Assembly: GCA_919901915.1 (NCBI GenBank)
Contig: CAKKQB010000028.1
Location: 38,499 to 102,498, forward strand
Origin: Omnitrophica bacterium GWA2_41_15
GTDB taxonomy: Bacteria; Omnitrophota; Gorgyraeia; Gygaellales; Profunditerraquicolaceae
Direction: 5' to 3'
DNA: 64,000 nt
Shown here: positions 414 through 63,402 of the stretch, one piece after another
Layout: each line of letters begins with the position of its first letter
Position numbering within the stretch: position 1 is the first letter of the stretch
Translations under genes and position numbers: made by a program
The notes under the pieces: generated by a model
The model's database searches: none
What the model saw: the letters and a program-made list of their open reading frames with translations, nothing else
What the model was told of the DNA's origin: nothing

Positions 414-472
414 AATACTATTTTTGTGTCGTTCCAAGTCCACTGTCAAGGTCTGACCCCATCTTCTAAAAT

Positions 473-661
473 GTCATTCCCGCGAAAGCGGGAATCCAGA
501 ACAAGAATCTGGGAAAAAGGTGACTGTCACGCCTTTTATGACTGTCACCTTTTTTTCGCCCCGAATTATCATTCGAATTACCATTAAGGCAGACACATAG
601 GTCTGCCCCTACGGTTTCCCCGGAATTCTCCAGTAGAGACGAGGCACTGCCTCGTCTCTAC
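473..661. repeat. Cluster of four distinct palindromic elements downstream of SBBP paralog A
   Basis: gtcattcccgcgaaagcgggaatcc at 473-497; ggtgactgtcacgcc..gactgtcacc at 512-556; ggcagacacataggtctgcc at 588-607; gtagagacgaggcactgcctcgtctctac at 633-661. Further copies occur at 3147-3197, 2285-2316 and 41646-41685. Confidence 0.8.
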
Positions 662-675
662 ACGACAGGGGCAAA

Positions 676-3123: not shown

Positions 3124-3211
3124 ATTTTACACATCCGTTATTTTCAGGAATCTGGGGGAAAAGGTGACTGTCACGCTCTTTGTGACTGTCACCTTTCTTT
3201 CAAAACCGCAA

Positions 3212-3973
3212 CTACCCCATTGCCACGGGAACAATATTTTCTTTATTGCGTGAAATTTCTATCTCACCGAACAAATTAGGCTGCATAGCAACTACCTCTT
3301 TCATCCTAATCAGCTCCAATATCGCCAGAAAAGTCACAATTATTTCTATTTTATTTTTTGCCTTAATAAATAAATCGGAAAGTTTTACCGAGGGCTCTAC
3401 CAATAAAAAATGCAGGAGATAGTGAATCTTTTCCTCAACAGTAAACTCATCTTTTATTACTTCATAAAATACATCTTTGGGAACATTCTTTAATGCCGCG
3501 GTAAAGGCGCTTATTAAATCAAATATACTTGCCTCAAAATACACCTCTTTCTGCGTAACTAATTCTTTATCCAGGTCGATCTTGGGCCGTTTAAAAATCT
3601 CGCGTTGATTATCTTCCCTTTCTCTTAAGGTCTGCGCTATCTGTTTAAACTTTTCATATTCTAATAACCGCTCTAGTAGCTCAGCGCGGGGGTCTCCTTC
3701 TTCCTCCCCTATACTTTCTTTTTGCGCGGGAAGAAGCATTTTGGATTTAATCTGCATCAGCGTAGCCGCCATTACCAAAAATTCTCCGGCAATATTTGGG
3801 TCTAAAAGCTTCATTAAATCTAAATACTCGAGATACTGCTGAGTAACCTGGGCTATAGGTATATCATAAATATTAAGATGATCTTTTTTTACCAAATATA
3901 AAAGCAAATCCAGCGGGCCTTCGAAAAGTTCTAATTTTATTTTATAATTCATCTTTAATACACCGATACACAC
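3212..3973 (-). CDS. scpA: Segregation and condensation protein A (kleisin)
   Basis: FEGPLDLLLYLVKKDHLNIYDIPIAQVTQQYLEYL...MAATLMQIKSKMLLP matches ScpA. The true start is probably the internal MNYKIK at about 3952. Confidence 0.8.
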   Translation of the reverse strand: MCIGVLKMNYKIKLELFEGPLDLLLYLVKKDHLNIYDIPIAQVTQQYLEYLDLMKLLDPNIAGEFLVMAATLMQIKSKMLLPAQKESIGEEEGDPRAELLERLLEYEKFKQIAQTLREREDNQREIFKRPKIDLDKELVTQKEVYFEASIFDLISAFTAALKNVPKDVFYEVIKDEFTVEEKIHYLLHFLLVEPSVKLSDLFIKAKNKIEIIVTFLAILELIRMKEVVAMQPNLFGEIEISRNKENIVPVAMG

Positions 3974-17197: not shown

Positions 17198-17253
17198 TTT
17201 TAGCGGATAGCGGATAGCGGCTAGCGTATAGTTTTTCTATCCGCTATCCGCTT
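17198..17253. repeat. Heptamer-tandem hairpin (gcggata)n ... (tatccgc)n; one example of a pervasive family
   Basis: tttagcggatagcggatagcggctagcgtatagtttttctatccgctatccgc. More than 20 family members with different heptamer units sit at gene boundaries and inside genes. The coordinates are given in the findings. Confidence 0.85.
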
Positions 17254-21647: not shown

Positions 21648-23129
<1,482 letters not shown>

Positions 23130-26291: not shown

Positions 26292-26410
26292 TGTTTTAGC
26301 GTTTAGCGGATAGCGTTTAGCGGATAGTTTATCATGTCCTATACGCTCTACGCTATGCGCTCTACGCTCATCTTGCTCTACGTTATACGCTTGACATTTG
26401 AATCTCTTTA

Positions 26411-28006
26411 TCATAGCCTTATCCCCTTCACTGATAAAATATTTTCTATTTTTTTTATCTCTTCCAAGATTTTCGCTGAAACAGGAGTATCCACATTTAA
26501 AACGCTTATTGCTTTTCCACCGGGCGCCTCGCGGCCAAAGGTCATAGCCGCAATATTAATATTGTATTTGCCTAAAAACATTCCCAGATTTCCGATAATA
26601 CCCGGCCTATCCCAATTCTCCACAAAAATCAAATCCCCCATAGGAATCACTTCAACATAATACTCATCAATCTTTACAATGCGCGGCTGTTTATTGGAAG
26701 AAAGGGTGCCTAAAATTCTCCTGGTTTCCTTATCGGTCTTAAGCTCCAATTGAATCAGGTTTACAAATTCCTCTTCCTTTGAAGATTTTGCCTCATTGAT
26801 TTTAATACCTCTTTCTTTAGCTAACGCCAAAGCATTGATAGAATTAACTGTCTCGCCAAGTATAGGAGTAAGCAATCCTTTAACCAAAGCTAATGTCAGA
26901 GGCGTTAAATTATGCCGGCTGATATCGCCGCTATAAATTATATTTAATTCTTTTAACCTGCCCTCAATTAGTTGACAGCTGAATAAGCCTGTCTTCTCTG
27001 CCAGATTAATATACGGCTCAATAGCCTTATACGCCTCTGGTTCCACGCAGGGGTAATTGGCGGCATTCTGAATACCTTTGCCTAAAAGCGCGTCAGAGAC
27101 AATATGTGCCACTTCGATTGCCACATTAACCTGCGCTTCTTCCGTGGAAGCGCCCAAATGAGGGGTGAGGATAACATTATTTAATTTTAAAAGCTCGCTG
27201 TCAGCCAAAAGCGGCTCATTCTCAAAAACATCCAAAGCAGCGCCGGAAACCTTACCTTCTTTAACCGCCTTAACAAGCGCCGCCTCATCAACAATACCGC
27301 CCCGGGCGCAATTAATTACGCGCACGCCTTTTTTCATAATCGCGAACTGTCCATCTGATATCATATGCTTAGTCTCGCTGGAAAGCGGCACGTGAACCGT
27401 AATGTAATCAACCCGCTGAAACAGCTCTTCTAATTCCACTACCTCTACCCCAATGCCTTGCGCGACTTCAAGCGACAAATACGGGTCGAATGCTAAAATC
27501 TTCATCCCGAATGATTTAGCCCTTTTAGCCACTTCTGTGCCAATCCTTCCCAATCCAACGATACCCAATATTTTACCATAAAGTTCAACACCCATAAACT
27601 TAGAACGTTTCCACTCGCCTAATTTTACCGAAGCATTTGCTTGGGGAATGCTCCTGGAAAGCGACAAAATCATACTCATTGTATGCTCGGCTGTAGAAAT
27701 AGTGTTACCCGCGGGCGTATTCATCACGATTATACCCTTTTGCGTAGCTGCCTCTAAATCCACATTATCTAATCCCACGCCGGCGCGGCCTATTACTTTC
27801 AGCCTGTCTGAAGCGCCAATAATATCCTTAGTTACCTTGGTAGCGCTTCTTACCACTAAAGCATCGTAATCTTTAATTATCTCTTTTAACATTTCCGGCT
27901 TTAAGTCTGTCTTCACATCAACCTGAAATTCTTTCACGTCTCTAAAAATTTTCAATCCCTCTTCTGATAACGCATCGCTAACTAATATTTTTTTCATTTT
28001 ACGCAC
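26411..28006 (-). CDS. serA: D-3-phosphoglycerate dehydrogenase with a C-terminal ACT domain
   Basis: 2-hydroxyacid dehydrogenase NAD-binding motif GIVGLGRIG, catalytic R/E/H residues, and ASB plus ACT C-terminal domains; 531 aa. Confidence 0.9.
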   Translation of the reverse strand: MRKMKKILVSDALSEEGLKIFRDVKEFQVDVKTDLKPEMLKEIIKDYDALVVRSATKVTKDIIGASDRLKVIGRAGVGLDNVDLEAATQKGIIVMNTPAGNTISTAEHTMSMILSLSRSIPQANASVKLGEWKRSKFMGVELYGKILGIVGLGRIGTEVAKRAKSFGMKILAFDPYLSLEVAQGIGVEVVELEELFQRVDYITVHVPLSSETKHMISDGQFAIMKKGVRVINCARGGIVDEAALVKAVKEGKVSGAALDVFENEPLLADSELLKLNNVILTPHLGASTEEAQVNVAIEVAHIVSDALLGKGIQNAANYPCVEPEAYKAIEPYINLAEKTGLFSCQLIEGRLKELNIIYSGDISRHNLTPLTLALVKGLLTPILGETVNSINALALAKERGIKINEAKSSKEEEFVNLIQLELKTDKETRRILGTLSSNKQPRIVKIDEYYVEVIPMGDLIFVENWDRPGIIGNLGMFLGKYNINIAAMTFGREAPGGKAISVLNVDTPVSAKILEEIKKIENILSVKGIRL

Positions 28007-28043
28007 CTCCTGATAGTTTTAATAACAATTCCCTCCCCCTTGT

Positions 28044-28136
28044 GAGACTGGGTCAAATAGCTGTGTCATTCCCGCGAAAGTGGGAATCCTGAGACTGGGT
28101 CAAATAGCTGTGTCATTCCCGCGAAAGCGGGAATCC
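28044..28136. repeat. Tandem duplication of a 'gagactgggtcaaatagctgtgtcattcccgcgaaagcgggaatcc' unit
   Basis: Two nearly identical ~46-nt units at 28044-28089 and 28091-28136. Each contains the gtcattcccgcgaaagcgggaatcc palindrome. Confidence 0.8.
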
Positions 28137-28163
28137 ACGAAGGGAAATACTTCTTATTAAACC

Positions 28164-29303
28164 CTATACCCTCAAAAACACTTCCTCCGCCGCTTTTACG
28201 CCAGAACCTAATTCAAATTTGTATCCCATTTGAGTCAAAACTTTTTCCAGGCATGATATGCCGAGAATAATATCAAACTCTTCAATAAAACCCATATGGG
28301 CAATCCTGATCAATTTGCCTTTCATTTCATCCTGGCCTCCGGCAATGGTTATGCCGTAAGTATCGCGCATAGTTTTAACTAATTTCTCGCCGTCAAGGCC
28401 CGCGGGAACATTAGCCGCTGTAACCGCGTCAGAAGAATTACTGCCGGCAAATAATTCCAGTCCCAGCGCCTTCATCGCCGTTCTTACGGCAACCCCAAGC
28501 TTTTTGTGGCGCGAAAACACATTTTCTAAACCGTCCTCCTTAAGCATTTTTAACACTTCATTCAAGGCAATAATTAAAGTAATGGCGGGAGTAAAAGGGG
28601 TATCTGTTTTATCAAGCGCCTTTTTTGCTTTTTTTAAATCAAGATAATACCTAGGGCATTTCGCGTTTTCAACTAAGCCAAATGCCTTTGAACTTACAGA
28701 AATAAATCCTAAACCCGGGGGAAGCATCAGGCCTTTTTGCGAACCGGAAACCACTACATCGCAAAACCAAGCGTCGGTTTTAAGGTCAACAGCGCCTAAG
28801 CCGCTTATGGCGTCAACCACTAATACCGCCGGTGTATCTTTTATGATTTTACCAATAGCCTCAATATCGCTTTTCGCGCCGGTTGATGTTTCACATAAAG
28901 TTGTAAATACGGCTTTTATTTTTGGATTTGCTCCTAACCTGCGCTCTATCTCCTTAGGCTCAACCGCATGCCCCCATTCCACTTTAATAACATCACAATT
29001 TACATTATTCGCGCGACAGATCTCTGTCCAACGCTCGCCGAATTTTCCAGCCTCCACTATTATCACCGTGTCGCCGGGGGATAACAAATTTACAACTGCC
29101 GCCTCCATCGCGCCTGTCCCAGAAGAAGCTAAAATAAAAACATCGTTTTTTGTCTGGAATACATACCTTAGGCCGTCAGTCGTCTCTTTTAGAATTGCCT
29201 GAAATTGCGGAGTCCGATGATGAATTATCGGCCTGGACATCGCCTCGCAAACATACGGCGGTAATGGTGTTGGCCCGGGTGTTAATAAATAGTTTTTGCG
29301 CAT
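28164..29303 (-). CDS. Class V aminotransferase; phosphoserine / serine-pyruvate aminotransferase type, probably the SerC partner of the adjacent serA
   Basis: LLTPGPTP N-terminus and the SGSQKGL pyridoxal-lysine region. The 17-aa ORF-track extension ([11 protein letters not shown]) is a translated cgtatct heptamer repeat. Confidence 0.8.
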   Translation of the reverse strand: MRKNYLLTPGPTPLPPYVCEAMSRPIIHHRTPQFQAILKETTDGLRYVFQTKNDVFILASSGTGAMEAAVVNLLSPGDTVIIVEAGKFGERWTEICRANNVNCDVIKVEWGHAVEPKEIERRLGANPKIKAVFTTLCETSTGAKSDIEAIGKIIKDTPAVLVVDAISGLGAVDLKTDAWFCDVVVSGSQKGLMLPPGLGFISVSSKAFGLVENAKCPRYYLDLKKAKKALDKTDTPFTPAITLIIALNEVLKMLKEDGLENVFSRHKKLGVAVRTAMKALGLELFAGSNSSDAVTAANVPAGLDGEKLVKTMRDTYGITIAGGQDEMKGKLIRIAHMGFIEEFDIILGISCLEKVLTQMGYKFELGSGVKAAEEVFLRV

Positions 29304-29393
29304 AGACACCTCCTTGTGTGCGTATCTCGTATCTCGTGAATCGTATCTCGTCATTCGTCGTTCGCATTTCGTAACGATTCACGAGATACGAAC

Positions 29394-30005
29394 TTATTTC
29401 TTCTGGCTAACAATCACCTCATCAATAATTCCGTAATCTTTAGCTTCATTCGCGGACATAAAATAATCTCTATCCGTATCCTTTTGTATCTTATCCAAAG
29501 ATTGCCCCGTATGAACCGCCAAAAGGCCGTTTATAGACTCGCGCATCTTTAAAATCTCTTTAGCATGACGGGAAATATCTTCCGCGGTTCCCTGAACGCC
29601 GCCCCAAGGCTGATGAATCATAACTCTTGAATTAGGAAGCGTCTGACGTTTTCCTTTTCTACCCGCGCATAAAAGAAGCGCGGCTATGCTAGATGCCTGG
29701 CCCACGCAATAAGTCGCCACATCGCACTTGACAAACTGCATGGTATCGTATATCGCAAGGCCTGCCGTAACTACTCCGCCGGGAGAATTTATATAAATAT
29801 TTATATCTTTATTAGCATCCTCCATCTGCAAAAACAACATCTGCGCAATCGCTAAATTTGCCACATAATCATCAATAGCAGTCCCAATAAATATAATACG
29901 CTCTTTTAATAACCGGGAATAAATATCATAGGCCCGTTCATAACCCCGCGAAGTCTGCTCGATAACCATCGGAACCAATGTCTGATTTTTAATCTCCATA
30001 CCCAC
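29394..30005 (-). CDS. clpP: ATP-dependent Clp protease proteolytic subunit
   Basis: Active-site context INSPGG around the catalytic Ser, the His-containing MIHQP, and the Asp region; 203 aa. Confidence 0.9.
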
Positions 30006-30071
30006 CTCCTCAATTAATGTCTACTGTCAAGGTCTGACCCCATTTTAGTTAACACAACCGGGGTAACTTAC

Positions 30072-31733
30072 TTAACTGTTACAACCGAAAAGAATAGCGT
30101 TATTCTTAGTAGATTCATCCCCTAGTTTTACGACAAAGCCGTCTGCGCCAACGACAAGATGCTTTTGCGGTTCCCATGATGTTGCTTCCCAGCCGGCTTC
30201 ATCACACGACCATCCTCCAACATAAATATTCTTACTATTCACAGCTAACGCAATAGGTTCCTCTCCAGGGCCAGAAATGCCTTTTTCACCTAACCATTGA
30301 CCCCACTTTACTGCAGGCAAAATGCCATCAATAATTTTTATAACGAACTTTTGCTTATGACCACTATATGTCCCCAAAAATGTTGTTTCCCAACCTATTT
30401 GAGGGCTGGTAACGCCAATCCCATAGGTATTGGACGTCCCTCCAACGTAAATATTATTACCATTCACAGCTAAAGCATTAACTGAATCCATTGCTTTTCC
30501 ACCTAACCACTGACCCCATTTCAATTCAGGCTTATTAGTAACGGGATTATCGAAAATTTTTATAACAAATAGTTCCCTCGTGCTAGAGCTTTTAAACTCA
30601 CCTAACATCGTTATTCCATCCAAGCCGGTTTTGCTAGTTGACTCCCCCCCAACATAGATATTGCTACCATTTACAGCTATGCATAGAACTAAATCATAGA
30701 TTTTTCCTCCTAACCATTGACCCCAAACCACCGAAGCACTCGGATCAATAAGCAACGGGTAATTTGAAAGAGACTCTTTAATAGAAACAGTTAAGGCATT
30801 ATCAGCGTTAATAATATAGGATGCAGTTTTTTTAACTCCATCAGCTGTCCAATAAACAAGAGGTTCTAAAATAGCGAGAGGTTTTTCATCGCCAAAAGCG
30901 ACATTATGGTTTAAGGCTTTACGCACAGTATCCATTACCGAGGCGCGTTTTTTAAGGTCAGAATTATCTATGCCGGAAATCTTCATTGTCCTGTAAACAT
31001 TAACACTACCGTTGGGCTGTTGTTTGAGAGTTACGCTTGCGCCAGAGTCAGTTGAAAATTTCCAGGTATATTGGCTTAAATTATCAGAATGATTAAAAGC
31101 CGTAGCTTGAATCCACTCTTTTAACATTGCGCCTTGAGCAGATTGAGAAGCAAGGTATATAATAGTGTCTGTTGGCCGTTGATAAACCTGCGCAGAGCCC
31201 AGCGGTTTAGATTTAACGGTGAACTGTTTAAAAGGGGCAGAATTATTATCTAATTCCATCGTGAACGAAGCAGTATCTTGACCGTTTTTCATCAGAAAAC
31301 GTTTTTTGACGGTGTCCGATTTAGCATCAAAAGAAACGCGCATTTCCACTGGGCTCGACCGACCGAGGGCGGAATGCCCGAGGAAGTCGGGATAATGCTC
31401 CACTCCTTCGTCATTCCGGCGCAAGCCGGAATCCAGTCCGGACTCTGACATAGCAAATGTTACAGCATCACTATTAGTTTGAAATTTTGGTTTACCTGTA
31501 GGAAATAAAGCAAGAGGCTCTGGCGCGAGTTTAGATATTTGCTTAAATATCCCCACGGTCATAGACAACTCTTGAGCTATTGGCCCAGGAATAGCCGCGT
31601 ACACGTTACCAGTTAAAAAAGGCGCCGAAGAAAACAAAATAAACACTGGTAAAATAATTAAACTAACTACTGCGGCATACTTCCTTATCATTTTCAATCC
31701 TCCATTTAAACTTCTACGCCCTTTTTCATCCAT
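30072..31733 (-). CDS. Secreted SBBP-type beta-propeller repeat protein, paralog B
   Basis: The N-terminal ~270 aa are homologous to 676..3123 (AIPGPIAQELSM..QISKLAPEP..DSGLRRNDEG). WGQWLGG...NIYVGG repeats and a C-terminal ...FGCNS. In-frame repeat copies at 31356-31392 and 31409-31435. Confidence 0.6.
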   Translation of the reverse strand: MDEKGRRSLNGGLKMIRKYAAVVSLIILPVFILFSSAPFLTGNVYAAIPGPIAQELSMTVGIFKQISKLAPEPLALFPTGKPKFQTNSDAVTFAMSESGLDSGLRRNDEGVEHYPDFLGHSALGRSSPVEMRVSFDAKSDTVKKRFLMKNGQDTASFTMELDNNSAPFKQFTVKSKPLGSAQVYQRPTDTIIYLASQSAQGAMLKEWIQATAFNHSDNLSQYTWKFSTDSGASVTLKQQPNGSVNVYRTMKISGIDNSDLKKRASVMDTVRKALNHNVAFGDEKPLAILEPLVYWTADGVKKTASYIINADNALTVSIKESLSNYPLLIDPSASVVWGQWLGGKIYDLVLCIAVNGSNIYVGGESTSKTGLDGITMLGEFKSSSTRELFVIKIFDNPVTNKPELKWGQWLGGKAMDSVNALAVNGNNIYVGGTSNTYGIGVTSPQIGWETTFLGTYSGHKQKFVIKIIDGILPAVKWGQWLGEKGISGPGEEPIALAVNSKNIYVGGWSCDEAGWEATSWEPQKHLVVGADGFVVKLGDESTKNNAILFGCNS

Positions 31734-31990
31734 TCAGGTAAAGGAGTACGAGTTGCTTCACAATAAAGAATTTCAGGCGCTATATCTATTTCTTTATTCC
31801 ACGTAAGATTACCGATTTCTTTATCAAGCTGGAATGATTTAAAAAATTCGATATTTTTGAATCTCTCAAAAACACCGCTTTTTTCTAAATATGGACAAAA
31901 ATCCATAATTCCTGCCTCTCCATTCTCAAATGTGAGCTTTATTTTATAATCTTCCAGATACTCCGCCAATATTATATCTAAAAGCATCAA
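31706..31990 (-). CDS. DUF2442 family protein
   Basis: Small ~90 aa protein of the DUF2442 family (family assignment from memory, no defining motif identified), paired immediately downstream of a DUF4160 gene, which is the usual arrangement. Confidence 0.5.
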   Translation of the reverse strand: MMLLDIILAEYLEDYKIKLTFENGEAGIMDFCPYLEKSGVFERFKNIEFFKSFQLDKEIGNLTWNKEIDIAPEILYCEATRTPLPEWMKKGVEV

Positions 31991-32000
31991 GAGCCTCCTT

Positions 32001-32261
32001 TTATTTTAAAGGTTCTATTTTTTCAGGTGGAAGATTTTGAGCCATAATTTCCCAATCTTTTAATAATTCATTTTTATATAAAAATGCCCATTCCATAATT
32101 AGGCCTAATGCTCTTGGCGGAAATCTTCCTTCCAAAATTCGCAATGAATTAATATCAATTGCAATTTTATATTCACCGTAACGAGCATGGAAATGAGGCG
32201 GATTATGTTCGTCATAAAACATAGACACTATAATTCCATAAAATCTCGATATTTCAGGCAT
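32001..32261 (-). CDS. DUF4160 family protein
   Basis: MPEISRFYGI...YDEHNPPHFHARYGEYKIAIDI, the characteristic HNPPHFH core. Confidence 0.55.
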   Translation of the reverse strand: MPEISRFYGIIVSMFYDEHNPPHFHARYGEYKIAIDINSLRILEGRFPPRALGLIMEWAFLYKNELLKDWEIMAQNLPPEKIEPLK

Positions 32262-32553
32262 TTTAATTCCTCATTATTTCTCAAATTTTACGACAAAACC
32301 GCCTACAGGGATTGTTGCAAAATGCTTCCGAGCTGTCAAGAGCCCTGCTTGACTGGGCAATCCAGAAGTTTTTATCGACAAGCTTTTCAGTTTCTCTCAT
32401 TCCGGATTAAAACATTCCGGAATGACGGCTTTTCTGAGATTGCTGAAATAATCCAAAATAGGCAGCAATCTCTGATTACAGCGATTAAATTTAGATTACA
32501 GCGATTTATTTCCGTCGGTAAAATCTCTGTAATCTTTTGTAATCTCCGTAATC

Positions 32554-32600
32554 AGAGGTCACTGATATAGTTTTTAGGAATTTTTCAGTGACCTCTTTTC
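32554..32600 (+). terminator. Strong stem-loop followed by a T-tract; candidate plus-strand intrinsic terminator
   Basis: A perfect 12-bp stem agaggtcactga ... tcagtgacctct is followed by tttc, but no confident plus-strand gene lies upstream. Confidence 0.35.
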
Positions 32601-32632
32601 TTAATTCTTGACACCACCTGATTGTCATGTCT

Positions 32633-33508
32633 CTACACGACCTGCCAATCCGCTTCCCTTAACAAAAACTCCATAACATGGCGCGACATATTATCGTCGG
32701 AAGGAATATTTTCCTTCTTTGCTATTTGGGCAAAAACTAAATACACCAAAACATGCTTTTTAGCCTCTGGTTCTAATTTTTCAATTAAAACCTTTTCCTG
32801 ACTGTCTATTGTTTCTCTAGGAACTCCTTTTAATGCCAAATCCACTTTTGCCTGCTTTAGCATATCATCAAGCTGGCGCTTTATAAGGCTTTGCGGCAAT
32901 TCAAAAACAAAATCCTTGGTTATATTTTCAATTATTTCGTTTTCAATTCTGGCGTGCTCCTGGTTTTCTTTATTCATAAAAATCTGTCTTTCTATAGCCC
33001 TCTCTAATTCCTGCGTGCCGGGATACCCTAAAGACTTAGCAAGCCTATCATCTACCTCTTCAATTTTATACTGCTCTTTCAAAGAATCAATGCCGCGCTT
33101 TACCTCATCATCAGCCACATTTGTCTTTTTAAAGTTAATCTTTATATTTTTATAGTTTTCTATAACTATCTCGGGACTTACCTCAACTTTTGCCTTAAAC
33201 GAAAGGCTGTTTTTATCTAATTGGACTTCTGTAATCTCCGGCAGGCCCACAACATCAAGATTTTCTTTTTGCATTGCCTCATTGTAAACATCCGGCACTA
33301 ATTCCCTAAGAACATTTTCGCGGACAACAGAGCCATATTGCTTTTCTACAATATCGCGCGGGGCCTTCCCCGGACGGAATCCCTGCACCTTCGCGTCCCT
33401 GGCAACCCTTTTAAAAACATCTTCAAACTTATTTTTTACAATATCACCGCTTACCTCAATACTTATCTCTCTTCTAATACTGTCTACTTTTTTGATTTCT
33501 GTTTTCAC
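32633..33508 (-). CDS. tig: Trigger factor lacking the PPIase (FKBP) domain
   Basis: N-terminal ribosome-binding signature GFRPGKAP and a C-terminal arm domain. At 291 aa, the ~100-aa PPIase domain found between them in canonical Tig is absent. Confidence 0.7.
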   Translation of the reverse strand: MKTEIKKVDSIRREISIEVSGDIVKNKFEDVFKRVARDAKVQGFRPGKAPRDIVEKQYGSVVRENVLRELVPDVYNEAMQKENLDVVGLPEITEVQLDKNSLSFKAKVEVSPEIVIENYKNIKINFKKTNVADDEVKRGIDSLKEQYKIEEVDDRLAKSLGYPGTQELERAIERQIFMNKENQEHARIENEIIENITKDFVFELPQSLIKRQLDDMLKQAKVDLALKGVPRETIDSQEKVLIEKLEPEAKKHVLVYLVFAQIAKKENIPSDDNMSRHVMEFLLREADWQVV

Positions 33509-33519
33509 GTTTGTCCTTT

Positions 33520-34242
33520 CTACATCCTAAATTTCTCGCCCAAATATACTGAACGAGCCTGCGGATTATTAACCAATTCTTCTGATGTCCCGGAAATCAA
33601 AATTCTGCCTTCAGCAATTAAATACGCCCTGTCAGTTATAGAAAGTGTCTCCCGGACATTATGGTCAGTGAGTAAAATCCCCAGGCCTTTTTTCCTTAGT
33701 TCCCTGATAATCTCCTGCGCCTCACTAACCACAATCGGGTCTATACCTGAAAACGGCTCATCTAAAAGTATGAACGAAGGGTTTGTCACTAACGCGCGCG
33801 TTATCTCAAGGCGCCTTCTTTCCCCTCCCGATAATGTATAAGCCTTACTTTTAGCAAGATGCGAAATATTTAATTCTTCCAACAGATAAGCGAGCCTCCT
33901 GTTTCTTTCAGCCTTACTTATAGATAGGGTCTCTAATATCGCCATAATATTTTCTTCCACGGTAAGTTTTCGAAATACAGAAGGCTCCTGTGAAAGATAA
34001 CCTATACCATAACGGGCACGCTCATGAATAGGCAGTGCCGTTATATCATTATTATCAAAAATTATTTTCCCGCGATTAGGCGCGATTACACCCACCACCA
34101 TATAAAACGTTGTAGTTTTTCCCGCGCCATTAGGCCCTAACAGGCCCACAATCTCACCGCGCAAAACCTGCATATTCACGCCCTTGACAACTTCCCTTCC
34201 ATCATAGGACTTAGCTAAATCTTTAATTTCCAATAAATGCAT
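33520..34242 (-). CDS. lptB: LPS export ABC transporter ATP-binding protein
   Basis: Walker [10 protein letters not shown], the ABC signature LSGGERRR and Walker B ILLDEP; 240 aa. Sits in the kdsD-kdsC-lptC/A-lptB synteny. Confidence 0.85.
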
Positions 34243-35275
34243 TTTTAGCGTCCTCTGTTGAATTTATAATTAACTTAGGCCTTCCAGTAAGAACAATCTT
34301 TTTATCTGAAGCGGTATAAAGCGCTTCTTCGCTGTAAGAAACATTTTCCCCGCGAGAAATCTTTACATTTCCCTTCGCGATAATCTTGTCTATTTGGCTT
34401 CCTATGGATTTCGGCCCTTGCTTTAATTCACCAGTAGGGACAGCGCAGTGCGCTGTCCCTACAGCTGTCCCTACGTTATCTTTGTGTTCCCTACCGGTCC
34501 GAATAAAATAGACATCCATTTTATCGCTCGAGATTTCAGATCCCTGCTGGCTGACTTTAACATTATTGCTAAATTGAGCGATATTTTTTTCATAATCTAC
34601 CTCAAGCGGGCCATCGCAGGTAATGATTATTTTTTCTTGTGATTTTACGCCTAAAAGCCCTTCTTTCTGAACAGGCTCAATGTCTAACCGCACATCGCGT
34701 TCTAAGGCAATCTGTTTTAAATCAGACTGCCCCTTTACCCCTGTCGCCGTCACAGTCATATTATCTCTTTTTATATTTACCGGATCACCTGTTGTAACAA
34801 CCCCGCCTTTTCTATCCCAATCCAAAGAATCAGTAGTTAGTTTTGTGCCGCCGGAAGTAGTAATAACAACATCCTGCTTTAGATTAACCTTACCATTTTC
34901 TTTATTGAAATCGCCTTTTTTAGCGCTAAGCCGAATATCTTCTCCTTTTCCATAAAAATTACCCACCACACTATCAAGCTTTACCTGCGATTGAAAAATA
35001 TCGGCTGTTTTAGCGCGAAGATCCCATTCCTTTTTACCTTTTTCTCCCTGGCCAGCAACGCTAAAATCATTAATCTGCTGATCTGCTTCAATAGATGACT
35101 GTTCAGCGGCAAATGAGAAATTATAAATACCAAAACATAAATAACAAAATAAACATAAAGCGTAAAATAAGCTCGTATCTCGTGAATCGTATCTCGTGAA
35201 TCGTTTCCCAACGAGATACGAGATACAAGATACAAAATACGAGATACGAACGACGATTCCTATTCTAAATATCAT
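34223..35275 (-). CDS. OstA-like LptA/LptC-family periplasmic LPS transport protein; start is uncertain
   Basis: Beta-jellyroll OstA-like repeats with the pattern K.N.....NV.......I..D. Lies between kdsC and lptB as in the canonical operon. The N-terminal ~35 codons translate the heptamer repeat at 35172-35260. Confidence 0.55.
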
Positions 35276-39623: not shown

Positions 39624-40211
39624 TAGTAATGAAAATTTTAGCGCCTTACGTCGTTATGTATTTGTATTCGAAGTTCTAATTTTAGCATAAATTTTAATTA
39701 AATCAATACTATTTTAGGAATGCGTCAAGCCAATTTAGAAATGTCGTATTTTCATATTTCAATTACGAGGTGTCTGAATTGTTGCATTTTTGGGCGAGCA
39801 AGCGACCGAGGGCGAAATGCCCGAGGAAGTGTCGCGCCCATCTGGGCGGGACCTCGCCCCTACTTTAGAATACGACATTTCTAAATTGGTAGAATACGAC
39901 ATTATCATATTGGGATGACATACTATTTTAAACACAAACCCTATCCCGCCTTTTCTGCCACTTTTTGGCCATTTTTCGCGAAATATCATGGCTAAACCTA
40001 TCGCACCCCCGTCATTCCGGTGAAAACCGGAATCCAGTCACATAAAAATCACTGGACCCCGACTTTCGTCGGGGTGACGCACCTTGCCTTCGTCATTCCA
40101 GCCCCGATTTTCATCGGGGCAGGCTACATCCGGAATCCAGGTTAATAATATTTCCTGGATTCCGGATTAAAACATTCCGGAATGACGGTTTTTCTTAATT
40201 GTGACACAGTC
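39624..40211. repeat. Non-coding region of ~590 bp filled with nested palindromic elements
   Basis: TIR pair aatttagaaatgtcgtatt / aatacgacatttctaaatt flanks a GC-rich gggcgagcaagcgaccgagggcgaaatgcccgaggaagt...gggcgggacctcgcccc hairpin. Three gtcattcc..ggaatcc units follow at 40011-40140, then ggattccggattaaaacattccggaatgacgg at 40158-40189. Confidence 0.75.
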
Positions 40212-42344
40212 TTATTTACCGGCGACTGCCGTTTCTATTGCGCAGTTTGGACGGGTTAAGATCGCGTCAGCGGCTTCTATTACATCCTCTATGCTGACAG
40301 CTTTAAGACAGGCAAATTCTTTTTTGCAGTTATGCGCCAGACATTCAATACATCCTGCTTCTTTATGATGTAAAATTTTGTCTCTTTCACCCAACGGTCC
40401 CCAGCGTTTAGGGCTTAGGCCTTTTTGATTCCTGCCAAATATGGTAATTACAGGCGTCCCCACTGCCACAGCAATATGCATGGGGCCAGAGTCAGTGGAA
40501 ATAAACAACTTACACCTCTTTAAAATACTGGCTAACTGGCTTATTGACGCTCTTCCTGTCAGGTTAATTACAGGAATACGCGAATGTTTCACTAAATTTA
40601 ACGCCAATAAAGAGTCTTGCGCTCCGCCAACCACAATCACCTTAAAACCATATTTTTCAACCACCCTCTCGCCAACCCGGGCAAAACGCTCCTGCGGCCA
40701 AATCCTAGACGGACAACTTGCGCCCGGATGAATTGCCAATATTTTATCAGAGCTCTTAATCCCTTCCTTGCTAAATAATGTCTCTACCCAATCTTCAGAA
40801 TCCTGCCTAATGGGAACAAATAATTTTTTATCTTTTGGCTCAATCCCCAAAGCCCTTACCAAATCAAGGCTGTATTCTACCTCATGTTTTTCTCCTAATT
40901 GTTTAGTATGTTTTATTCTTTTTGTAAGCAAAAAACCTAATTTATAGTCATACCCAATTCTTCTGGGTATGCGAGCAAAAAATATTACAAGATGCGCGCG
41001 GCTTGTAGGATGCAAAATCAGGCTTACATCAAATCTTTTTTTCTTTAATTGGCTGGAAAATTTTAATGACCCATACCAGCTTTTATGCAAAGCGCTCTTA
41101 TCATATATTATTACGTCATCTAAATAAGGATTGACCTCCACTATTTCCTTTGTATAAGGCGAAACCATCATCGCTATATAGGCATTAGGATATTCATCTC
41201 TTAATGCCTTTATTACCGGCGTGGATAAAACCACATCGCCGATTCTATCGGTCCTTACGATAAGAATCCGCTTGAAATTATTTTTTGAGCGGATAGTGTT
41301 TGGCGGATAGCGGAACCCCAAAATATTTCTTACATCTCTTATTACATCTTCAACCTTAATCAAATTCATACACTCTACAGTATCAAACCTGCACTGTGCC
41401 GCTTGACACGGCCGGCAAAAAATATCCTTTTTAACTACCGCGCGAACCTCTGACCAAGGGCCATATTTCTCCTCATTAGTAGGCCCAAATATTGCTGCTA
41501 CAGGGACATTTAAATAACTAGCCAAATGCGAAACCGCGCTATCATTGCTTACCAATATTTTTGCTTTTTTTAATAACGCGGCCAATTGCAAAAAAGTTAT
41601 TTTTCCGGCTAAATCTATTATAGATTCTTCGCCCTTCGAACCCGTAAAAAGGTAACTGTCACGCCCTTTGCGACTGTCACCTTTTTGTTCACCTTTTTTT
41701 AGATACTCCGTTATAACTGCGTCATCCTTATCTCCCACCAAAATTATCTTGGCAGAAAATTCTTGTATTAAAAATGGAATTAATTCCGCGAACTTGTCCT
41801 TGTCCCACATCTTCAGATGACTGCGCGCTCCCGGGGCAATAACGATTATTTTATCCCCGGCGGCTAAACCATTCTCTTCCAATATTTTTTTAATACATTC
41901 TTCGTCTTGGCGGCTAATATATAAAGACTTTTTATCCGCGGCTTCTCGCGGACTTTCACGAACTCCCATAGCGCTAAGCGCCCCGCGCAAGCGCCTTTCC
42001 TTCATATGTTTTATTTTCCCGGAAATAAACAGAAACGGCGAAATTTTAATCTTCGCGGGTAAAAACGCGCCATACAAACTATTACGCAAATCAAAAACCG
42101 CGTCAAACTTTTCCTTCTTAAGTTGATTGAATAATTTTATCTTATCCCTTAACTTTGAATGTTTATTATAAATAATGAGTTTATCTATGGAAGGGTTATT
42201 TTCGAATATCTCCTTTGGGCGAGGAGCAGTCATAACCGTAATTTTAGCCGCAGGAAACTTCTCTTGCAATATATCCAAAACCGGCAAAGTCAGGACCACA
42301 TCGCCGAGATTACTTAGAGTAATAAAGAGAATCTTGTTTATCAT
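40212..42344 (-). CDS. Tandem-fused double GT9 heptosyltransferase (two ADP-heptose:LPS heptosyltransferase domains in one 710-aa ORF)
   Basis: Two complete GT9 folds, each ending in the ...SNDSGPMH..A..TP...FG motif region. Two palindromic repeat copies are read in frame: 41646-41685 (encoding GDSRKGRDSY) and 41288-41316 (FRYPPNTIRS). Confidence 0.75.
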   Translation of the reverse strand: MINKILFITLSNLGDVVLTLPVLDILQEKFPAAKITVMTAPRPKEIFENNPSIDKLIIYNKHSKLRDKIKLFNQLKKEKFDAVFDLRNSLYGAFLPAKIKISPFLFISGKIKHMKERRLRGALSAMGVRESPREAADKKSLYISRQDEECIKKILEENGLAAGDKIIVIAPGARSHLKMWDKDKFAELIPFLIQEFSAKIILVGDKDDAVITEYLKKGEQKGDSRKGRDSYLFTGSKGEESIIDLAGKITFLQLAALLKKAKILVSNDSAVSHLASYLNVPVAAIFGPTNEEKYGPWSEVRAVVKKDIFCRPCQAAQCRFDTVECMNLIKVEDVIRDVRNILGFRYPPNTIRSKNNFKRILIVRTDRIGDVVLSTPVIKALRDEYPNAYIAMMVSPYTKEIVEVNPYLDDVIIYDKSALHKSWYGSLKFSSQLKKKRFDVSLILHPTSRAHLVIFFARIPRRIGYDYKLGFLLTKRIKHTKQLGEKHEVEYSLDLVRALGIEPKDKKLFVPIRQDSEDWVETLFSKEGIKSSDKILAIHPGASCPSRIWPQERFARVGERVVEKYGFKVIVVGGAQDSLLALNLVKHSRIPVINLTGRASISQLASILKRCKLFISTDSGPMHIAVAVGTPVITIFGRNQKGLSPKRWGPLGERDKILHHKEAGCIECLAHNCKKEFACLKAVSIEDVIEAADAILTRPNCAIETAVAGK

Positions 42345-46798: not shown

Positions 46799-48748
46799 TT
46801 ACATTATCCTCTTTACCGCTTCAACTACCAAAAGATTATCCTTAGGCGTATAAATCGAAGGATTCGTTCGCCAGATATGATCAATTTTTTTACCTAATTC
46901 CAAAATATCAACTAAATAAATATATTTGTTTCTGGCAAAATAATCAAGGAATCTTTTATGCTTCCCGTCTAATCCGGACGACTTAAAAACAAACGTATAT
47001 TTATTACTGCTTACTGCCTCTGAAACCATGGACAAACTGTCAGGAGAAGTTACAATAATTTTACTCAAACCAAGTATCCCTCCCACAGCCTCCGGAACAT
47101 TCTTTTCATTAGCTACAATTAGCATTTTACAACGTGGATAATCTCTGAACTCCTCTTTAACCAAAGCCTCTACTTCTTTTGAACTACGCCTTGAAGTTGT
47201 AATCAGAATACCTGCGTTCAAACTTTCAGATACTGCTTTTACCTGCTTAATCACCCCTAAAACCGTGTCTTTGTTAAGAGTGAAATTTTTCGTATCTCCC
47301 CCGATTAATAAACCAATGTAAAATCCAGTATTGCGTATTGCGTATTGCGTATTGCGTATTAACTTATCCGTCTCTTCTTTTAAATAAACCTCATCTATTA
47401 AATTCAGCGCTCCCTCGGTCACTACGACATTTTTTCTCTTCGGCGGGCAATCGTGTTTAGGCATTATTACCAGATCAAATCTTTTCATGCTTAATACAGA
47501 CGGCCGCATAACTACTATTGACTTAGCCATGTTTTCTCTGGCTAATATAAAATTAATCGGAGCCGCGCTTGCGCCGCAAGAAATTATTATATCGGGCTTC
47601 GCGCTTATTAAGCCATCATAAACATCACTTTTAAGAAAACTCTTCAAGCACCCTGAACAGCCCTGGCAATTATATTTACCTGCCAAAAAACTACTAAAAA
47701 TAAGCGCGTATTTAGAAAAATTGTTTTTAAATCTTATTTCTTTACTTTCAATTTTCGCCTCAATTCCCCTCTCCTTTAAAACATCACTAACGAGCCTCGC
47801 TACGCCTTGCGCCTGCCGGACATGCCCGGCTTTCGCGTCATTTAAAAGCAAAATACTTTTCTCTTTCGTATACTTCCATATTTTATAAGTCCAAAAAAGT
47901 TCTTTAGGGTATTTAAAAATATATTTTTCATAAACCCCAACCAGCCTTTGTAGATTGCTCTGAATATCTTTATCCGAATCGGCGCTCTTTTTGATTTCAA
48001 ATGCCGGCTCAATAAAAACCTTTGTAAACGGCCCTTTTACCCGCGTATAAAAAACCGGAATAATCGCGGCATCATACCTTAGCCCCAACTTCAACGCGCC
48101 GGTTGCCATAGAAGCGTATTGGCCGAAAAACTTAACCAAAACGCCGTTTTTACCGCCTTGGTCCATAGTCATACCAACCGCGCAATTATCTCCAAGCGCT
48201 TCAATTAATTGGCGTATACCGCCTTTTCTATAAATCACTTTAGAGCCTTTTAATCCACGGTATGAATTGAGCAGTTTATTCAGGCGGGGATATTTTTGCC
48301 CTTGCACGAATACAACATAAGGAAATCCAAGGTTAGCGCCGATAATATTAGAAAGCTCCCAACTGCCTTCGTGAACCACTAAAAGAATTACGCCTTTCCC
48401 TTTCTTAAAACCGGCAGAAATATTTTCCAATCCCTCGAAAGCCACATATTTATCTAAATATTTTTTATCCACCAAAGGGACAAGAAATACCTCTATCAAA
48501 TTCTGTCCAAATGCCCGATAAAATTCCTTGGTTATCCGGAATAATTCAGATGGCGGCTTCTCCTGTCCGAAGGCTGTTTTTATATTAGAATAGGCAACCG
48601 CCCTATGCCTAACATCAAAACAAAAAAGAAAATCACCCAGCCTTCTTCCCAGAAAAAAGCTAAAATTTTTAGGCAAGCATCTAATAAAAGAACCAACCGC
48701 CCTAAAAAGAATACAGCCCCAATAATCTATTATAGAATTCTTGTTCAT
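46799..48748 (-). CDS. Lipid A biosynthesis acyltransferase (LpxL/HtrB family) fused to a ~350-aa C-terminal domain of unknown function
   Basis: N-terminal LPLAT domain with the HEGSWE (H-x-N/S-WE) motif. An in-frame repeat insert NTQYAIRNTQYAIRNT is encoded by the gcgtatt heptamers at 47335-47363. Confidence 0.6.
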   Translation of the reverse strand: MNKNSIIDYWGCILFRAVGSFIRCLPKNFSFFLGRRLGDFLFCFDVRHRAVAYSNIKTAFGQEKPPSELFRITKEFYRAFGQNLIEVFLVPLVDKKYLDKYVAFEGLENISAGFKKGKGVILLVVHEGSWELSNIIGANLGFPYVVFVQGQKYPRLNKLLNSYRGLKGSKVIYRKGGIRQLIEALGDNCAVGMTMDQGGKNGVLVKFFGQYASMATGALKLGLRYDAAIIPVFYTRVKGPFTKVFIEPAFEIKKSADSDKDIQSNLQRLVGVYEKYIFKYPKELFWTYKIWKYTKEKSILLLNDAKAGHVRQAQGVARLVSDVLKERGIEAKIESKEIRFKNNFSKYALIFSSFLAGKYNCQGCSGCLKSFLKSDVYDGLISAKPDIIISCGASAAPINFILARENMAKSIVVMRPSVLSMKRFDLVIMPKHDCPPKRKNVVVTEGALNLIDEVYLKEETDKLIRNTQYAIRNTGFYIGLLIGGDTKNFTLNKDTVLGVIKQVKAVSESLNAGILITTSRRSSKEVEALVKEEFRDYPRCKMLIVANEKNVPEAVGGILGLSKIIVTSPDSLSMVSEAVSSNKYTFVFKSSGLDGKHKRFLDYFARNKYIYLVDILELGKKIDHIWRTNPSIYTPKDNLLVVEAVKRIM

Positions 48749-50084: not shown

Positions 50085-50249
50085 ATGCGCAAACTTATAA
50101 TTTTAATTATCCTTATTACCTTTTCCTTCACCTCCTTAGGCTTCCCCCCAGGTTCTGCCTTCCCTTCCTGTCATTCCTGCGAAAGCAGGAATCCAGTCTC
50201 AACCCTTACTTCGTTACCTAAGCGTCAACTCTGCCAATCCCCGTAATTA
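50085..50249 (+). CDS. Signal-peptide-encoding 5' segment, probably the frameshifted start of the long ORF 50497..52320
   Basis: MRKLIILIILITFSFTSLG, then a C6 tract at 50144-50149. Removing one C joins this frame to the ~120 codons that run stop-free (from 50141, no ATG) into the 607-aa ORF. Confidence 0.45.
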
Positions 50250-57205: not shown

Positions 57206-58075
57206 TTAGGCCCGCGGATGCGCCTTATCATAAACGTTTTTCAATTTCTCGGTAGTGAGATGGATATAAATCTGCGTAGTTGAAAGGCTCGCGTGGCCCA
57301 GGAGCTCCTGAACCGTCCTCAAATCCGCTCCGCGATTTAATAGGTGTGTGGCAAAACTATGCCTAAAGGTATGCGCTGATACGCCTGATTTCACCCCGGC
57401 TATATGAATATATTTTCCCACGATATCCATCACGCCTCGGCTAGTTATGCGCTTCCCGTTTTTATTTAAAAATATAGCGGCTATCTGCTTCTTTTTTTTG
57501 TCCTGATATTTTCTTATTGCTGTTAAAGCAGTATCGCCAATAGGAACAAGGCGCTCTTTCTTGCCTTTTCCTAAAACCTTAATTGTTCCGCTGATAAAAT
57601 CAATATTCTCTAAATTTAACCCGACTAATTCCGAAATTCGCAATCCCGCGGAATAAAATGTCTCTAAGATTGCCCGATCGCGCAAGCCTAATAGATCTTT
57701 TTCACTTTTCGCGAAAGCGCCCTCAATTAATTTGGCTGTCTCCTCTTCAGTCATAAAAGATGGGAGGCGCTTTTCTTGCTTGGGACTTGAGATCGCGAGC
57801 ACAGGATTAACTTTTAAATAACCGTCGCGGGTCAAAAACCTAAAAAAACTGCGTAACGCGGAAAGCCTGCGATTAACCGTCCGTGACGAGAGATTTTTTT
57901 GTTTTAAAAACCCCAAGTACTTTCGCAAAATAAGGTAATCAATTTTTTCTAAATCAGTTTCGCCAATAAATTTCGCGAAATCTACCAGATCTAATTTATA
58001 ATTTAAGATTGTATGAGCTGAATAATTCTTTTCTATCTCTAAATAACGGGCAAATTTTTCAATATACTTTTCCAT
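57206..58075 (-). CDS. Tyrosine recombinase XerC/XerD family
   Basis: The catalytic R..H..R..Y tetrad is readable (ARDRAILE...HTFRHSFAT...GHASLSTTQIYIHL); 289 aa. Confidence 0.85.
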   Translation of the reverse strand: MEKYIEKFARYLEIEKNYSAHTILNYKLDLVDFAKFIGETDLEKIDYLILRKYLGFLKQKNLSSRTVNRRLSALRSFFRFLTRDGYLKVNPVLAISSPKQEKRLPSFMTEEETAKLIEGAFAKSEKDLLGLRDRAILETFYSAGLRISELVGLNLENIDFISGTIKVLGKGKKERLVPIGDTALTAIRKYQDKKKKQIAAIFLNKNGKRITSRGVMDIVGKYIHIAGVKSGVSAHTFRHSFATHLLNRGADLRTVQELLGHASLSTTQIYIHLTTEKLKNVYDKAHPRA

Positions 58076-63313: not shown

Positions 63314-63402
63314 TACAGCCTCCTTTTGCGTATTGCGTATTGCGTATTGCGTATTGCGCAATACGCATCACGCACGACGCACGACGAAATATGCGCGACG
63401 AA

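Follow-up and report, generated by a model that had tools for sequence, protein, structure and literature searches.

Background

The tig-clpP-clpX(-lon) cluster is a conserved bacterial gene cluster, as in Escherichia coli. In a 64-kb stretch of DNA (hereafter the window) from Omnitrophica bacterium GWA2_41_15, however, tig and clpP are separated by 2.6 kb, a separation that was found in this genome alone. The window is part of a 121.7-kb contig from a groundwater metagenome (ENA ERZ1292638), and the DNA between the two genes holds a spacer with inverted repeats, a DUF4160/DUF2442 gene pair and a gene for a repeat protein that resembles SBBP proteins. What is this DNA, and did its parts arrive together? 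An earlier reading of the sequence alone (the original prediction) regarded the DUF4160/DUF2442 pair as a two-gene module of unknown, possibly toxin-antitoxin-like function that had been inserted together with a surface-protein cassette.

We conclude that the insertion is probably a composite 2.6-kb accessory islet, which entered the tig-clpP spacer from at least two separate sources. The first piece would be a minimal two-gene module of the DhiT/DhiA type II toxin-antitoxin family, essentially a 550-bp block that begins at the ribosome-binding site of the module, ends close to its last stop codon and appears to be exchanged horizontally between distant bacteria. The second would be a gene for a secreted SBBP-like protein, duplicated within the genome together with about 50 nt of 3' flank and cut to three of seven ancestral repeats, with purifying selection continuing. 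Short palindromic elements resembling repetitive extragenic palindromic (REP) elements would occupy the rest of the spacer.

The locus is a clean natural case of a highly conserved operon junction split by accessory DNA, and it reflects ordinary genome plasticity involving known kinds of element. It also leads to two annotation corrections, in that the function of the DUF4160/DUF2442 family is known and that the absence of clpX after clpP is a trait of the clade. Nothing fundamentally new on toxin-antitoxin biology, trigger factor or ClpP follows from it, and its only novel aspects, mildly so, are a conserved 3' flank and the entry of small blocks into operon spacers without a mobility gene. 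In-frame palindromes, a trigger factor without a peptidyl-prolyl isomerase (PPIase) domain and a very rare repeat family may be of more interest to the genome biology of Omnitrophota than the insertion itself.

Results and discussion

The break between tig and clpP

Species representatives of GTDB and metagenomes of JGI each contributed 80 loci, collected around homologues of the window's trigger factor that are 50-68% identical to it; certain contigs occur in both sets. The relatives are annotated as Candidatus Omnitrophota, and Verrucomicrobiota, Eremiobacterota and Deltaproteobacteria served as outgroups. In every countable locus, meaning one with a complete tig and sufficient downstream sequence (n = 146), clpP follows tig directly, at a distance of -5 to 280 bp (median 21) and with no intervening gene (0/146). 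The two genes are co-directional and adjacent in all relatives examined, as in the known cluster, and they are likewise adjacent in the three outgroups, as compared with a gap of 2,627 bp in the window. The predicted break in synteny is thus borne out, and because tig and clpP adjoin in 146/146 related loci, the break is a derived, lineage-specific insertion.

The same gene order across the phylum would instead have indicated an ancestral arrangement, with the three intervening genes lost in the relatives; none of the 146 loci has it. This alternative has next to no probability, and we regard it as effectively refuted. Its sole point is that no sampled relative exceeds 68% trigger-factor identity (at most 65% among GTDB genomes and 68% among JGI metagenomes). 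It would require many independent, precise deletions among the 146 loci, which include three other phyla, and the toxin-antitoxin block is of foreign composition.

Domain searches agree with the original prediction that tig, the DUF4160/DUF2442 pair, the repeat-protein gene and clpP follow each other in this order on the minus strand (Table 1). Every gene between 24 and 38 kb of the window lies on that strand, and the downstream order is kdsA, kdsD, kdsC, an lptC/A-like gene, lptB, tig, a 360-bp spacer, the DUF4160 gene, the DUF2442 gene, the repeat-protein gene, a 53-nt flank, clpP, a class-V aminotransferase gene and serA. The tig gene is intact. Its product matches Trigger_N at residues 1-142 (E = 1.7e-37) and Trigger_C at residues 166-280 (E = 1.3e-16) in Pfam and scores 191.3 bits against TIGR00115 (equivalog cut-off 180.2), and tblastn alignments with relatives reach residue 289-291 of 291. 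ClpP matches CLP_protease (PF00574; E = 6.8e-83) and scores 309.4 bits against TIGR00493 (cut-off 308.6); its true start is probably the ATG at 29999, since relatives align from residue 3.

The window's trigger factor lacks a PPIase domain, a difference from the known cluster. A trigger factor of about 290 residues without this domain occurs throughout the Omnitrophota clade (about 150 related loci, L003-L079 and L097-L176), and the outgroup loci L080-L082 have approximately 90-120 additional residues between the matched Trigger_N and Trigger_C segments.

It had also been predicted that tig and clpP are normally followed by clpX, and that the presence of an aminotransferase gene and serA in its place belongs to the break. 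The adjacency of tig and clpP holds, whereas the expectation of clpX fails within this clade. The aminotransferase gene follows clpP in 121/121 relatives with a contig that reaches far enough, and serA comes next in nearly all that are long enough. A tblastn search with E. coli ClpX gave no match in the 64-kb window or in any Omnitrophota locus (approximately 6-10 kb around clpP). The same query found clpX directly after clpP in the outgroups L081 and L082 (Eremiobacterota and Deltaproteobacteria), which served as positive control. The absence of clpX after clpP is therefore a clade trait that is separate from the insertion.

That the islet was joined artificially to tig and clpP at repeated elements during assembly is very improbable. 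The spacer is filled with repeats, and independent short-read assemblies break there, with a Logan contig carrying lptB and tig (L002) ending at 32567 and another Logan contig (L179) beginning at 32465. L179 is, however, 100% identical to the window over 31409-32465, as is L178, assembled from another Hainich sample, over 31206-32413. Both cross the junctions between the spacer, the toxin-antitoxin module and the repeat-protein gene, and for at least one junction an assembly artefact is thereby excluded. The contig is 121.7 kb long with a coverage of about 34x, the clpP-side junction is unique sequence in which the flank of the repeat-protein gene runs directly into the clpP ribosome-binding site, and the conserved gene order resumes exactly on both sides.

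The toxin-antitoxin module

The description of the DUF4160/DUF2442 pair as possibly toxin-antitoxin-like is upheld by Pfam and NCBIfam, which place it in the DhiT/DhiA type II family (NF048015/NF048016), and the label of unknown function is outdated (PMC8198452; PMC12065111). The toxin matches DUF4160 (PF13711) with 78.6 bits (cut-off 23; E = 4.1e-22) over profile positions 1-65 of 65 and DhiT (NF048015) with 80.6 bits (E = 9.6e-23). The antitoxin contains the DUF2442 domain only (PF10387; 49 bits, cut-off 23.9, E = 7.4e-13) and matches DhiA (NF048016) with 28.9 bits (E = 1.3e-6) over profile positions 2-67 of 160. Because both NCBIfam scores lie below the equivalog cut-offs, the pair is family-level kin of the Dickeya pair rather than its orthologue. 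No match was found in the defence-system library PADLOC, and PHROGs gave only families of unknown function.

DhiTA of Dickeya dadantii 3937 was experimentally validated as a type II toxin-antitoxin system in 2021 (PMC8198452). The DUF4160 protein blocks growth and co-expression of the DUF2442 protein lifts the block, the two genes share a transcript in which the toxin comes first, and the complex lowers the activity of its own promoter by 70-99% (PMC8198452). A 2025 survey describes most DUF4160 proteins as single-domain, followed by DUF2442 and without a confident structural homologue (PMC12065111). The window pair shares with DhiTA the same two domains, the toxin-first order, tight linkage, separate ribosome-binding sites and strong purifying selection on both proteins. 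It differs in that its 93-residue antitoxin lacks the C-terminal half of DhiA, that its host is an Omnitrophota metagenome-assembled genome (MAG) and not an enterobacterium, and that its activity is predicted. By analogy, the window toxin would halt growth whenever it is free of the antitoxin, and the two in complex would repress their own promoter; the module would then be an element, selfish or defensive, that stabilises itself.

The toxin stop codon (32001) and the antitoxin ATG (31987) are separated by a 13-nt gap that holds an AAGGAGG ribosome-binding site, and the antitoxin gene lies directly downstream of the toxin gene in 8/8 other DhiTA contexts as well (seven of close relatives and a more distant pair in L075). 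A promoter-like site precedes the toxin start by about 50 nt, with TTGACA, a 17-nt spacer and a TG-extended AACAAT (10/12 consensus positions). The motif HNPPHFH occupies toxin residues 19-25, and H19, H23 and H25 are invariant in an alignment of 60 homologues. An AlphaFold2 (AF2) model of the toxin has five strands and two helices with a predicted local distance difference test score (pLDDT) of 95.6; it has no significant structural neighbor in the PDB, and the PDB holds no sequence relative either. The last ~6 codons of the antitoxin gene lie outside the conserved block described below, and the gene ends 14 nt short of the likely start of the repeat-protein gene (31691), overlapping only the longer listed open reading frame (ORF) at 30072-31733. 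Against the closest module copies, the ratio of nonsynonymous to synonymous divergence (dN/dS) is 0.03-0.15 for both genes, which argues that both proteins are under strong constraint and functional.

The module is also found elsewhere. A protein search returned thousands of homologues, the closest with 93-97% identity, and close relatives of the module (72-97% protein identity) occur in seven other contexts. The block at 31723-32272 is 88-90% identical in nucleotide sequence to other copies (blastn), and junction alignments place the start of homology ~10 nt before the toxin ATG and its end a few codons short of the stop of the antitoxin gene. In a MAG labelled Desantisbacteria (L088/L089, 8001-8550), a copy separates exbB from exbD, with 93% protein identity and 17-22 nt spacers; exbB was identified as MotA_ExbB, and this is a second tight operon that is split. 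Other copies adjoin a Gp49/HTH pair on short contigs, and four further contexts are unlike each other and unlike the window. The module can thus sit inside a tight operon, between genes that run in the same direction (tig|clpP here and exbB|exbD in the other MAG), and minimal DhiT/DhiA-type modules circulate among uncultivated phyla (Omnitrophota and 'Desantisbacteria').

GC content is 31.8% in the module, 39.9% across the window and 41.5% in each of the repeat-protein paralogs; the module is compositionally foreign and the repeat-protein gene host-like. Synonymous divergence (dS) between the module and its nearest copies is 0.39-0.8, which places its sharing well after the hosts diverged, yet not in very recent times.

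The repeat-protein gene and its paralog

The repeat-protein gene of the islet (paralog 2) has a longer paralog in the same window (paralog 1), and the two products are 54% identical (BLASTP E = 3e-173). Paralog 2 likely starts at 31691 rather than at 31733. Its product has a signal-peptide-like N-terminus, which suggests secretion, an N-domain of about 320 residues and three repeats of approximately 65-70 residues; it differs from paralog 1 by two internal deletions. Paralog 1 and the outgroup homologues P0003 and P0004 each have seven repeats.

The designation of this protein as an SBBP beta-propeller paralog stands as regards paralogy. Neither paralog, nor any of P0003-P0005, matches PF06739 (SBBP) even at E = 10, PF25778 (DUF7948) gives no match at that threshold, and NCBIfam makes no SBBP assignment; the link to SBBP runs through a family profile. 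This profile matches P0127 (E = 1.8e-61), P0128 and P0129, all annotated with PF06739, and P0127 has five SBBP stretches (E = 1.4e-28). Paralog 1 aligns with P0127 (BLASTP E = 6e-15) with the repeats in register over more than 500 residues, beginning at a common 'YPL(L/V)IDP' junction between the N-domain and the repeats. "SBBP-like" therefore seems a fair name for proteins that fall outside formal Pfam membership. The paralogs resemble SBBP proteins in their ~65-residue repeats with the pattern W..LGG..D...A(L/I)AV...(I/V)Y(V/A)(G/A)G ... (D/E)(G/A)FV.K(I/L). Unlike SBBP proteins, which often carry an N-terminal DUF7948, they match neither profile, belong to a tiny family and lack a type IX secretion system (T9SS) or CHU_C tail. 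Three repeats cannot close a monomeric beta-propeller, and paralog 2 has no more than that. When paralog 2 was modelled with AF2 on an alignment of five sequences, the result was all-beta and of low quality (mean pLDDT 56), and its top Foldseek matches are propellers, with TM-scores of 0.2 or less that are too weak to be used as evidence.

Only five members of the family were found among 5.8 billion proteins, namely the two paralogs and three others, and the best homologue of paralog 2 in this set is paralog 1, on the same contig. The repeat-protein gene thus appears to be an intragenomic duplicate, to which the equal GC content of the two copies and, as described below, their common in-frame palindrome and alignable 3' flanks also point. 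Between the paralogs, the N-domain has a dN/dS of 0.26, a dS of 0.58 and 80% nucleotide identity, and the repeats have a dN/dS of 0.42, a dS of 1.1 and 60% nucleotide identity. These values indicate an old duplication whose short copy is still constrained by purifying selection. Because tig-clpP adjacency and seven repeats are both ancestral, paralog 2 is the derived copy at a derived site.

Both paralogs end in an A(I)(L/F)FGCNS tail that is not present in P0003 or P0004 and that could be a sorting or anchoring signal. P0004 (769 residues; gene at 8001-10310 in L083-L085, which are Omnitrophica RIFCSPHIGHO2_02_FULL_51_18 and two ENA contigs) immediately follows a secretin/T2SSE/T2SSF/pseudopilin cluster and is itself followed by an island with RelE, ParE, MazE-PIN and RHH-PIN modules and IS200-type Y1 transposases, the content of which varies among the three assemblies.

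One insertion or several

Did the module and the repeat-protein gene arrive as one cassette, as was originally proposed? The homology with other module copies ends at the module edges (31723-32272), the GC content changes from 31.8% to 41.5% between the two pieces, and the closest relative of the repeat-protein gene is in the same genome. It had been suggested to check whether the pair always travels with SBBP genes; no SBBP-like gene was found near any of the copies with available DNA among the seven other contexts (0 of seven). These observations speak against the proposal, and a composite origin from at least two sources is preferred.

That the pair and the repeat-protein gene were joined elsewhere and then inserted in a single event is accordingly unlikely. 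The two pieces are adjacent and co-directional, with the antitoxin stop 14 nt upstream of the likely start of paralog 2, within the stretch of its ribosome-binding site, and their dS values are similar. In addition, P0004 also abuts a variable region rich in toxin-antitoxin modules, and a DhiT homologue (P0025) precedes an uncharacterised gene of 538 residues. Such a joint origin is at odds with the module-edge boundaries and the GC contrast given above, with the lack of a toxin-antitoxin pair upstream of paralog 1, and with the search of 5.8 billion proteins, which returned no 538-residue relative of the repeat protein. The P0025 pair comes from JGI sample 3300075153, where a DhiTA pair with a toxin 77% identical to that of the window is followed by the 538-residue gene, which has no Pfam match.

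Several points weigh against the composite origin and the DhiT/DhiA assignment on which it draws. The dS of the module (0.39-0.8) is close to that of the paralogs (0.58) and does not separate the two events in time. P0025 is a close DhiT homologue, and the unannotated gene that it precedes is almost as long as paralog 2. Neither the insertion nor its surroundings hold an integrase or transposase gene, and the insertion has no clear terminal repeats. The NCBIfam scores, 80.6 bits for DhiT and 28.9 bits for DhiA, fall short of the 100 and 200 bits set for equivalogs, and the last ~90 residues of the DhiA profile have no counterpart in the window antitoxin. On the tig side, ~100 repeat-rich bases (32466-32566) are bridged by the original metaSPAdes contig alone. 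Because no relative exceeds 68% trigger-factor identity, the age of the insertion cannot be dated, and one event cannot be told from several or the events ordered; their order and mechanism are inferred.

Two candidate traces of mobility were set aside. The only tyrosine recombinase in the window (57206-58075) lies beside topA and dprA and looks like an Xer-type housekeeping enzyme, and a possible 6-nt target-site duplication, AGACAT, which follows the tig stop and recurs ahead of the clpP ribosome-binding site, is too short to be meaningful.

The shared 3' flank

A 19-nt motif, CTGTCAAGGTCTGACCCCA, occurs exactly twice in the 64 kb with up to three mismatches allowed (0.01 expected by chance), and it had been taken as a sign that both paralogs were duplicated together with their flanks. 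The first copy is at 443-461, as predicted; the second is at 30024-30042, one base from the predicted 30025-30043. Both copies are near the 3' ends of the paralogs, yet at different distances past the stop codons, 30 nt for paralog 2 and 215 nt for paralog 1. After each stop codon ~20 nt align (14/19 positions). The flank of paralog 1 is then interrupted by ~194 nt of nested palindromic elements (466-659), beyond which ~28 nt align nearly perfectly, the motif included, and end in GAC. Past this point the similarity is lost, as one flank passes into the clpP ribosome-binding site and the other into the leader of ruvB; the flank of paralog 2 ends 13-19 nt before the clpP start. Co-duplication of flanks therefore holds on the 3' side, where ~50 nt are alignable in total, and fails on the 5' side, where homology does not extend beyond the start codon.

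The 3' flank is ~89% identical between the paralogs, as compared with a proportion of synonymous differences (pS) of 0.41 in the N-domain. Conservation beyond the divergence of silent sites would reflect either constraint or gene conversion. The shared motif, 25 nt in its longer form, holds the palindrome GGTCAGACC and precedes the start codons of clpP and ruvB by 18-44 nt.

These observations raise the alternative of functional coupling, in which the module would sit upstream of clpP because ClpP proteolysis controls the antitoxin or because the 25-nt motif regulates clpP and ruvB. Many type II antitoxins are substrates of Lon or Clp proteases, and the conservation and position of the flank fit regulation as well. 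The motif is, however, absent from all other loci fetched, including the region upstream of their clpP genes, and the same module is found elsewhere at unrelated sites (exbB/exbD and toxin-antitoxin clusters). On inspection, no usable sigma-70 promoter can be recognised in the motif, nor does it agree with the CtsR, CIRCE or LexA operator consensus, and gene conversion between the paralogs would likewise explain the conserved flank. We therefore hold coupling to be highly unlikely. As a promoter, the motif was rejected on the grounds of a -35-like TTGACA without a usable -10 element at 16-18 nt before clpP, and as a terminator because the scan listed none there.

It is quite unlikely, too, that the ~50-nt flank is a functional cis element, either a recombination or landing site for repeat genes or a shared regulatory site, and that, with DhiTA modules wedging into operons, it marks an undescribed mode of small-cassette insertion. 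The reasoning is that the flank is better conserved than synonymous sites and ends just upstream of the clpP and ruvB starts. A landing site would mean that repeat-protein genes are copied into spacers directly upstream of housekeeping genes, and a regulatory site that the expression of clpP and ruvB is coupled to the upstream gene; the wedging of DhiTA without a mobility gene (tig|clpP, exbB|exbD) would belong to the same mode. A composite islet remains the preferred reading of the locus, with the flank as the trace of the duplication of paralog 2.

Table 1 Features of the tig-clpP region and related elements in the window
Feature	Position	Strand	Basis or remark
lptB	33520-34242	-	upstream of tig
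tig (trigger factor), 291 residues	32633-33508	-	Pfam, NCBIfam
Insertion, tig stop codon to clpP start codon, 2,627 bp	30006-32632	-	synteny
Non-coding spacer after tig, 360 bp	32273-32632	n/a	inverted repeats
Promoter-like site	32311-32339	-	consensus match only
Conserved toxin-antitoxin block, 550 bp	31723-32272	-	blastn, junction alignments, GC
DhiT-like toxin (DUF4160), 86 residues	32001-32261	-	Pfam, NCBIfam, alignment, AF2
DhiA-like antitoxin (DUF2442), 93 residues	31706-31987	-	Pfam, NCBIfam; ORF listed as 31706-31990
SBBP-like repeat protein, paralog 2, 539 residues	30072-31691	-	longer listed ORF 30072-31733, 553 residues
Palindromic element inside paralog 2, 27 nt	31410-31436	+	in-frame
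Duplicated 3' flank of paralog 2	30019-30071	-	flank alignment
clpP	29394-30005	-	Pfam, NCBIfam
Class-V aminotransferase	28164-29354 (region with serA, 26411-29303)	-	domain match
serA	26411-28006	-	domain match
SBBP-like paralog 1, 815 residues, 7 repeats	676-3123	-	between scpA (3212-3973) and ruvB (start near 417)
3' flank of paralog 1	438-675	-	homologous segments 660-675 and 438-465
GTCATTCCSGCGMAAGCSGGAATCCAG copies	2851-2877, 31410-31436, 473-499, 23050-23076, 28065-28091, 28112-28138, 40011-40037, 50170-50196		
Tandem 7-nt repeats	29326-29372, 35172-35218, 17199-17252, 26295-26334, 47314-47375, 63316-63377		

Spacer and palindromic elements

The spacer between tig and the module has no homology to the flanks of other DhiTA copies, and two of its elements recur in the window: 32343-32386 corresponds to 22999-23042 and 32399-32435 to 40159-40195. 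REP elements are known from many intergenic sites, and Rickettsia palindromic elements insert in-frame into genes. The window elements, hairpin palindromes of 27-29 nt with many intergenic copies, some of them in-frame and adding a peptide that outgroups lack, are like these in form. No transposase gene associated with the palindromes was found in the window.

The 27-nt palindromic element GTCATTCCSGCGMAAGCSGGAATCCAG has eight copies in the 64 kb (0 expected by chance). Two of these are in-frame, one in each paralog, where they are read as LDSGLRRNDEG and where outgroup homologues are gapped; since the element is present in both paralogs and not in the outgroups, it was inserted before the duplication. 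A second palindromic element, GTAGAGACGAGGCAnTGCCTCGTCTCTAC, occurs at 633-661 (intergenic) and at 2288-2316 inside the coding sequence of paralog 1. Through the coding copy, paralog 1 alone gains 'AETRQCLVST...', so that this insertion came after the duplication. A third repeat family of ~47 nt, AAAGGTGACTGTCAC...GTGACTGTCACCTTT, forms hairpins and occurs at 511-557, 3155-3201 and 41643-41689, which places it on both sides of paralog 1.

Tandem 7-nt repeats (e.g. CGTATCT/CGTGAAT, AGCGGAT and GCGTATT) are intergenic and lie just upstream of genes. Mechanical ORF calls sometimes take in these repeats; the aminotransferase and LptC ORFs, for example, carry them N-terminally.

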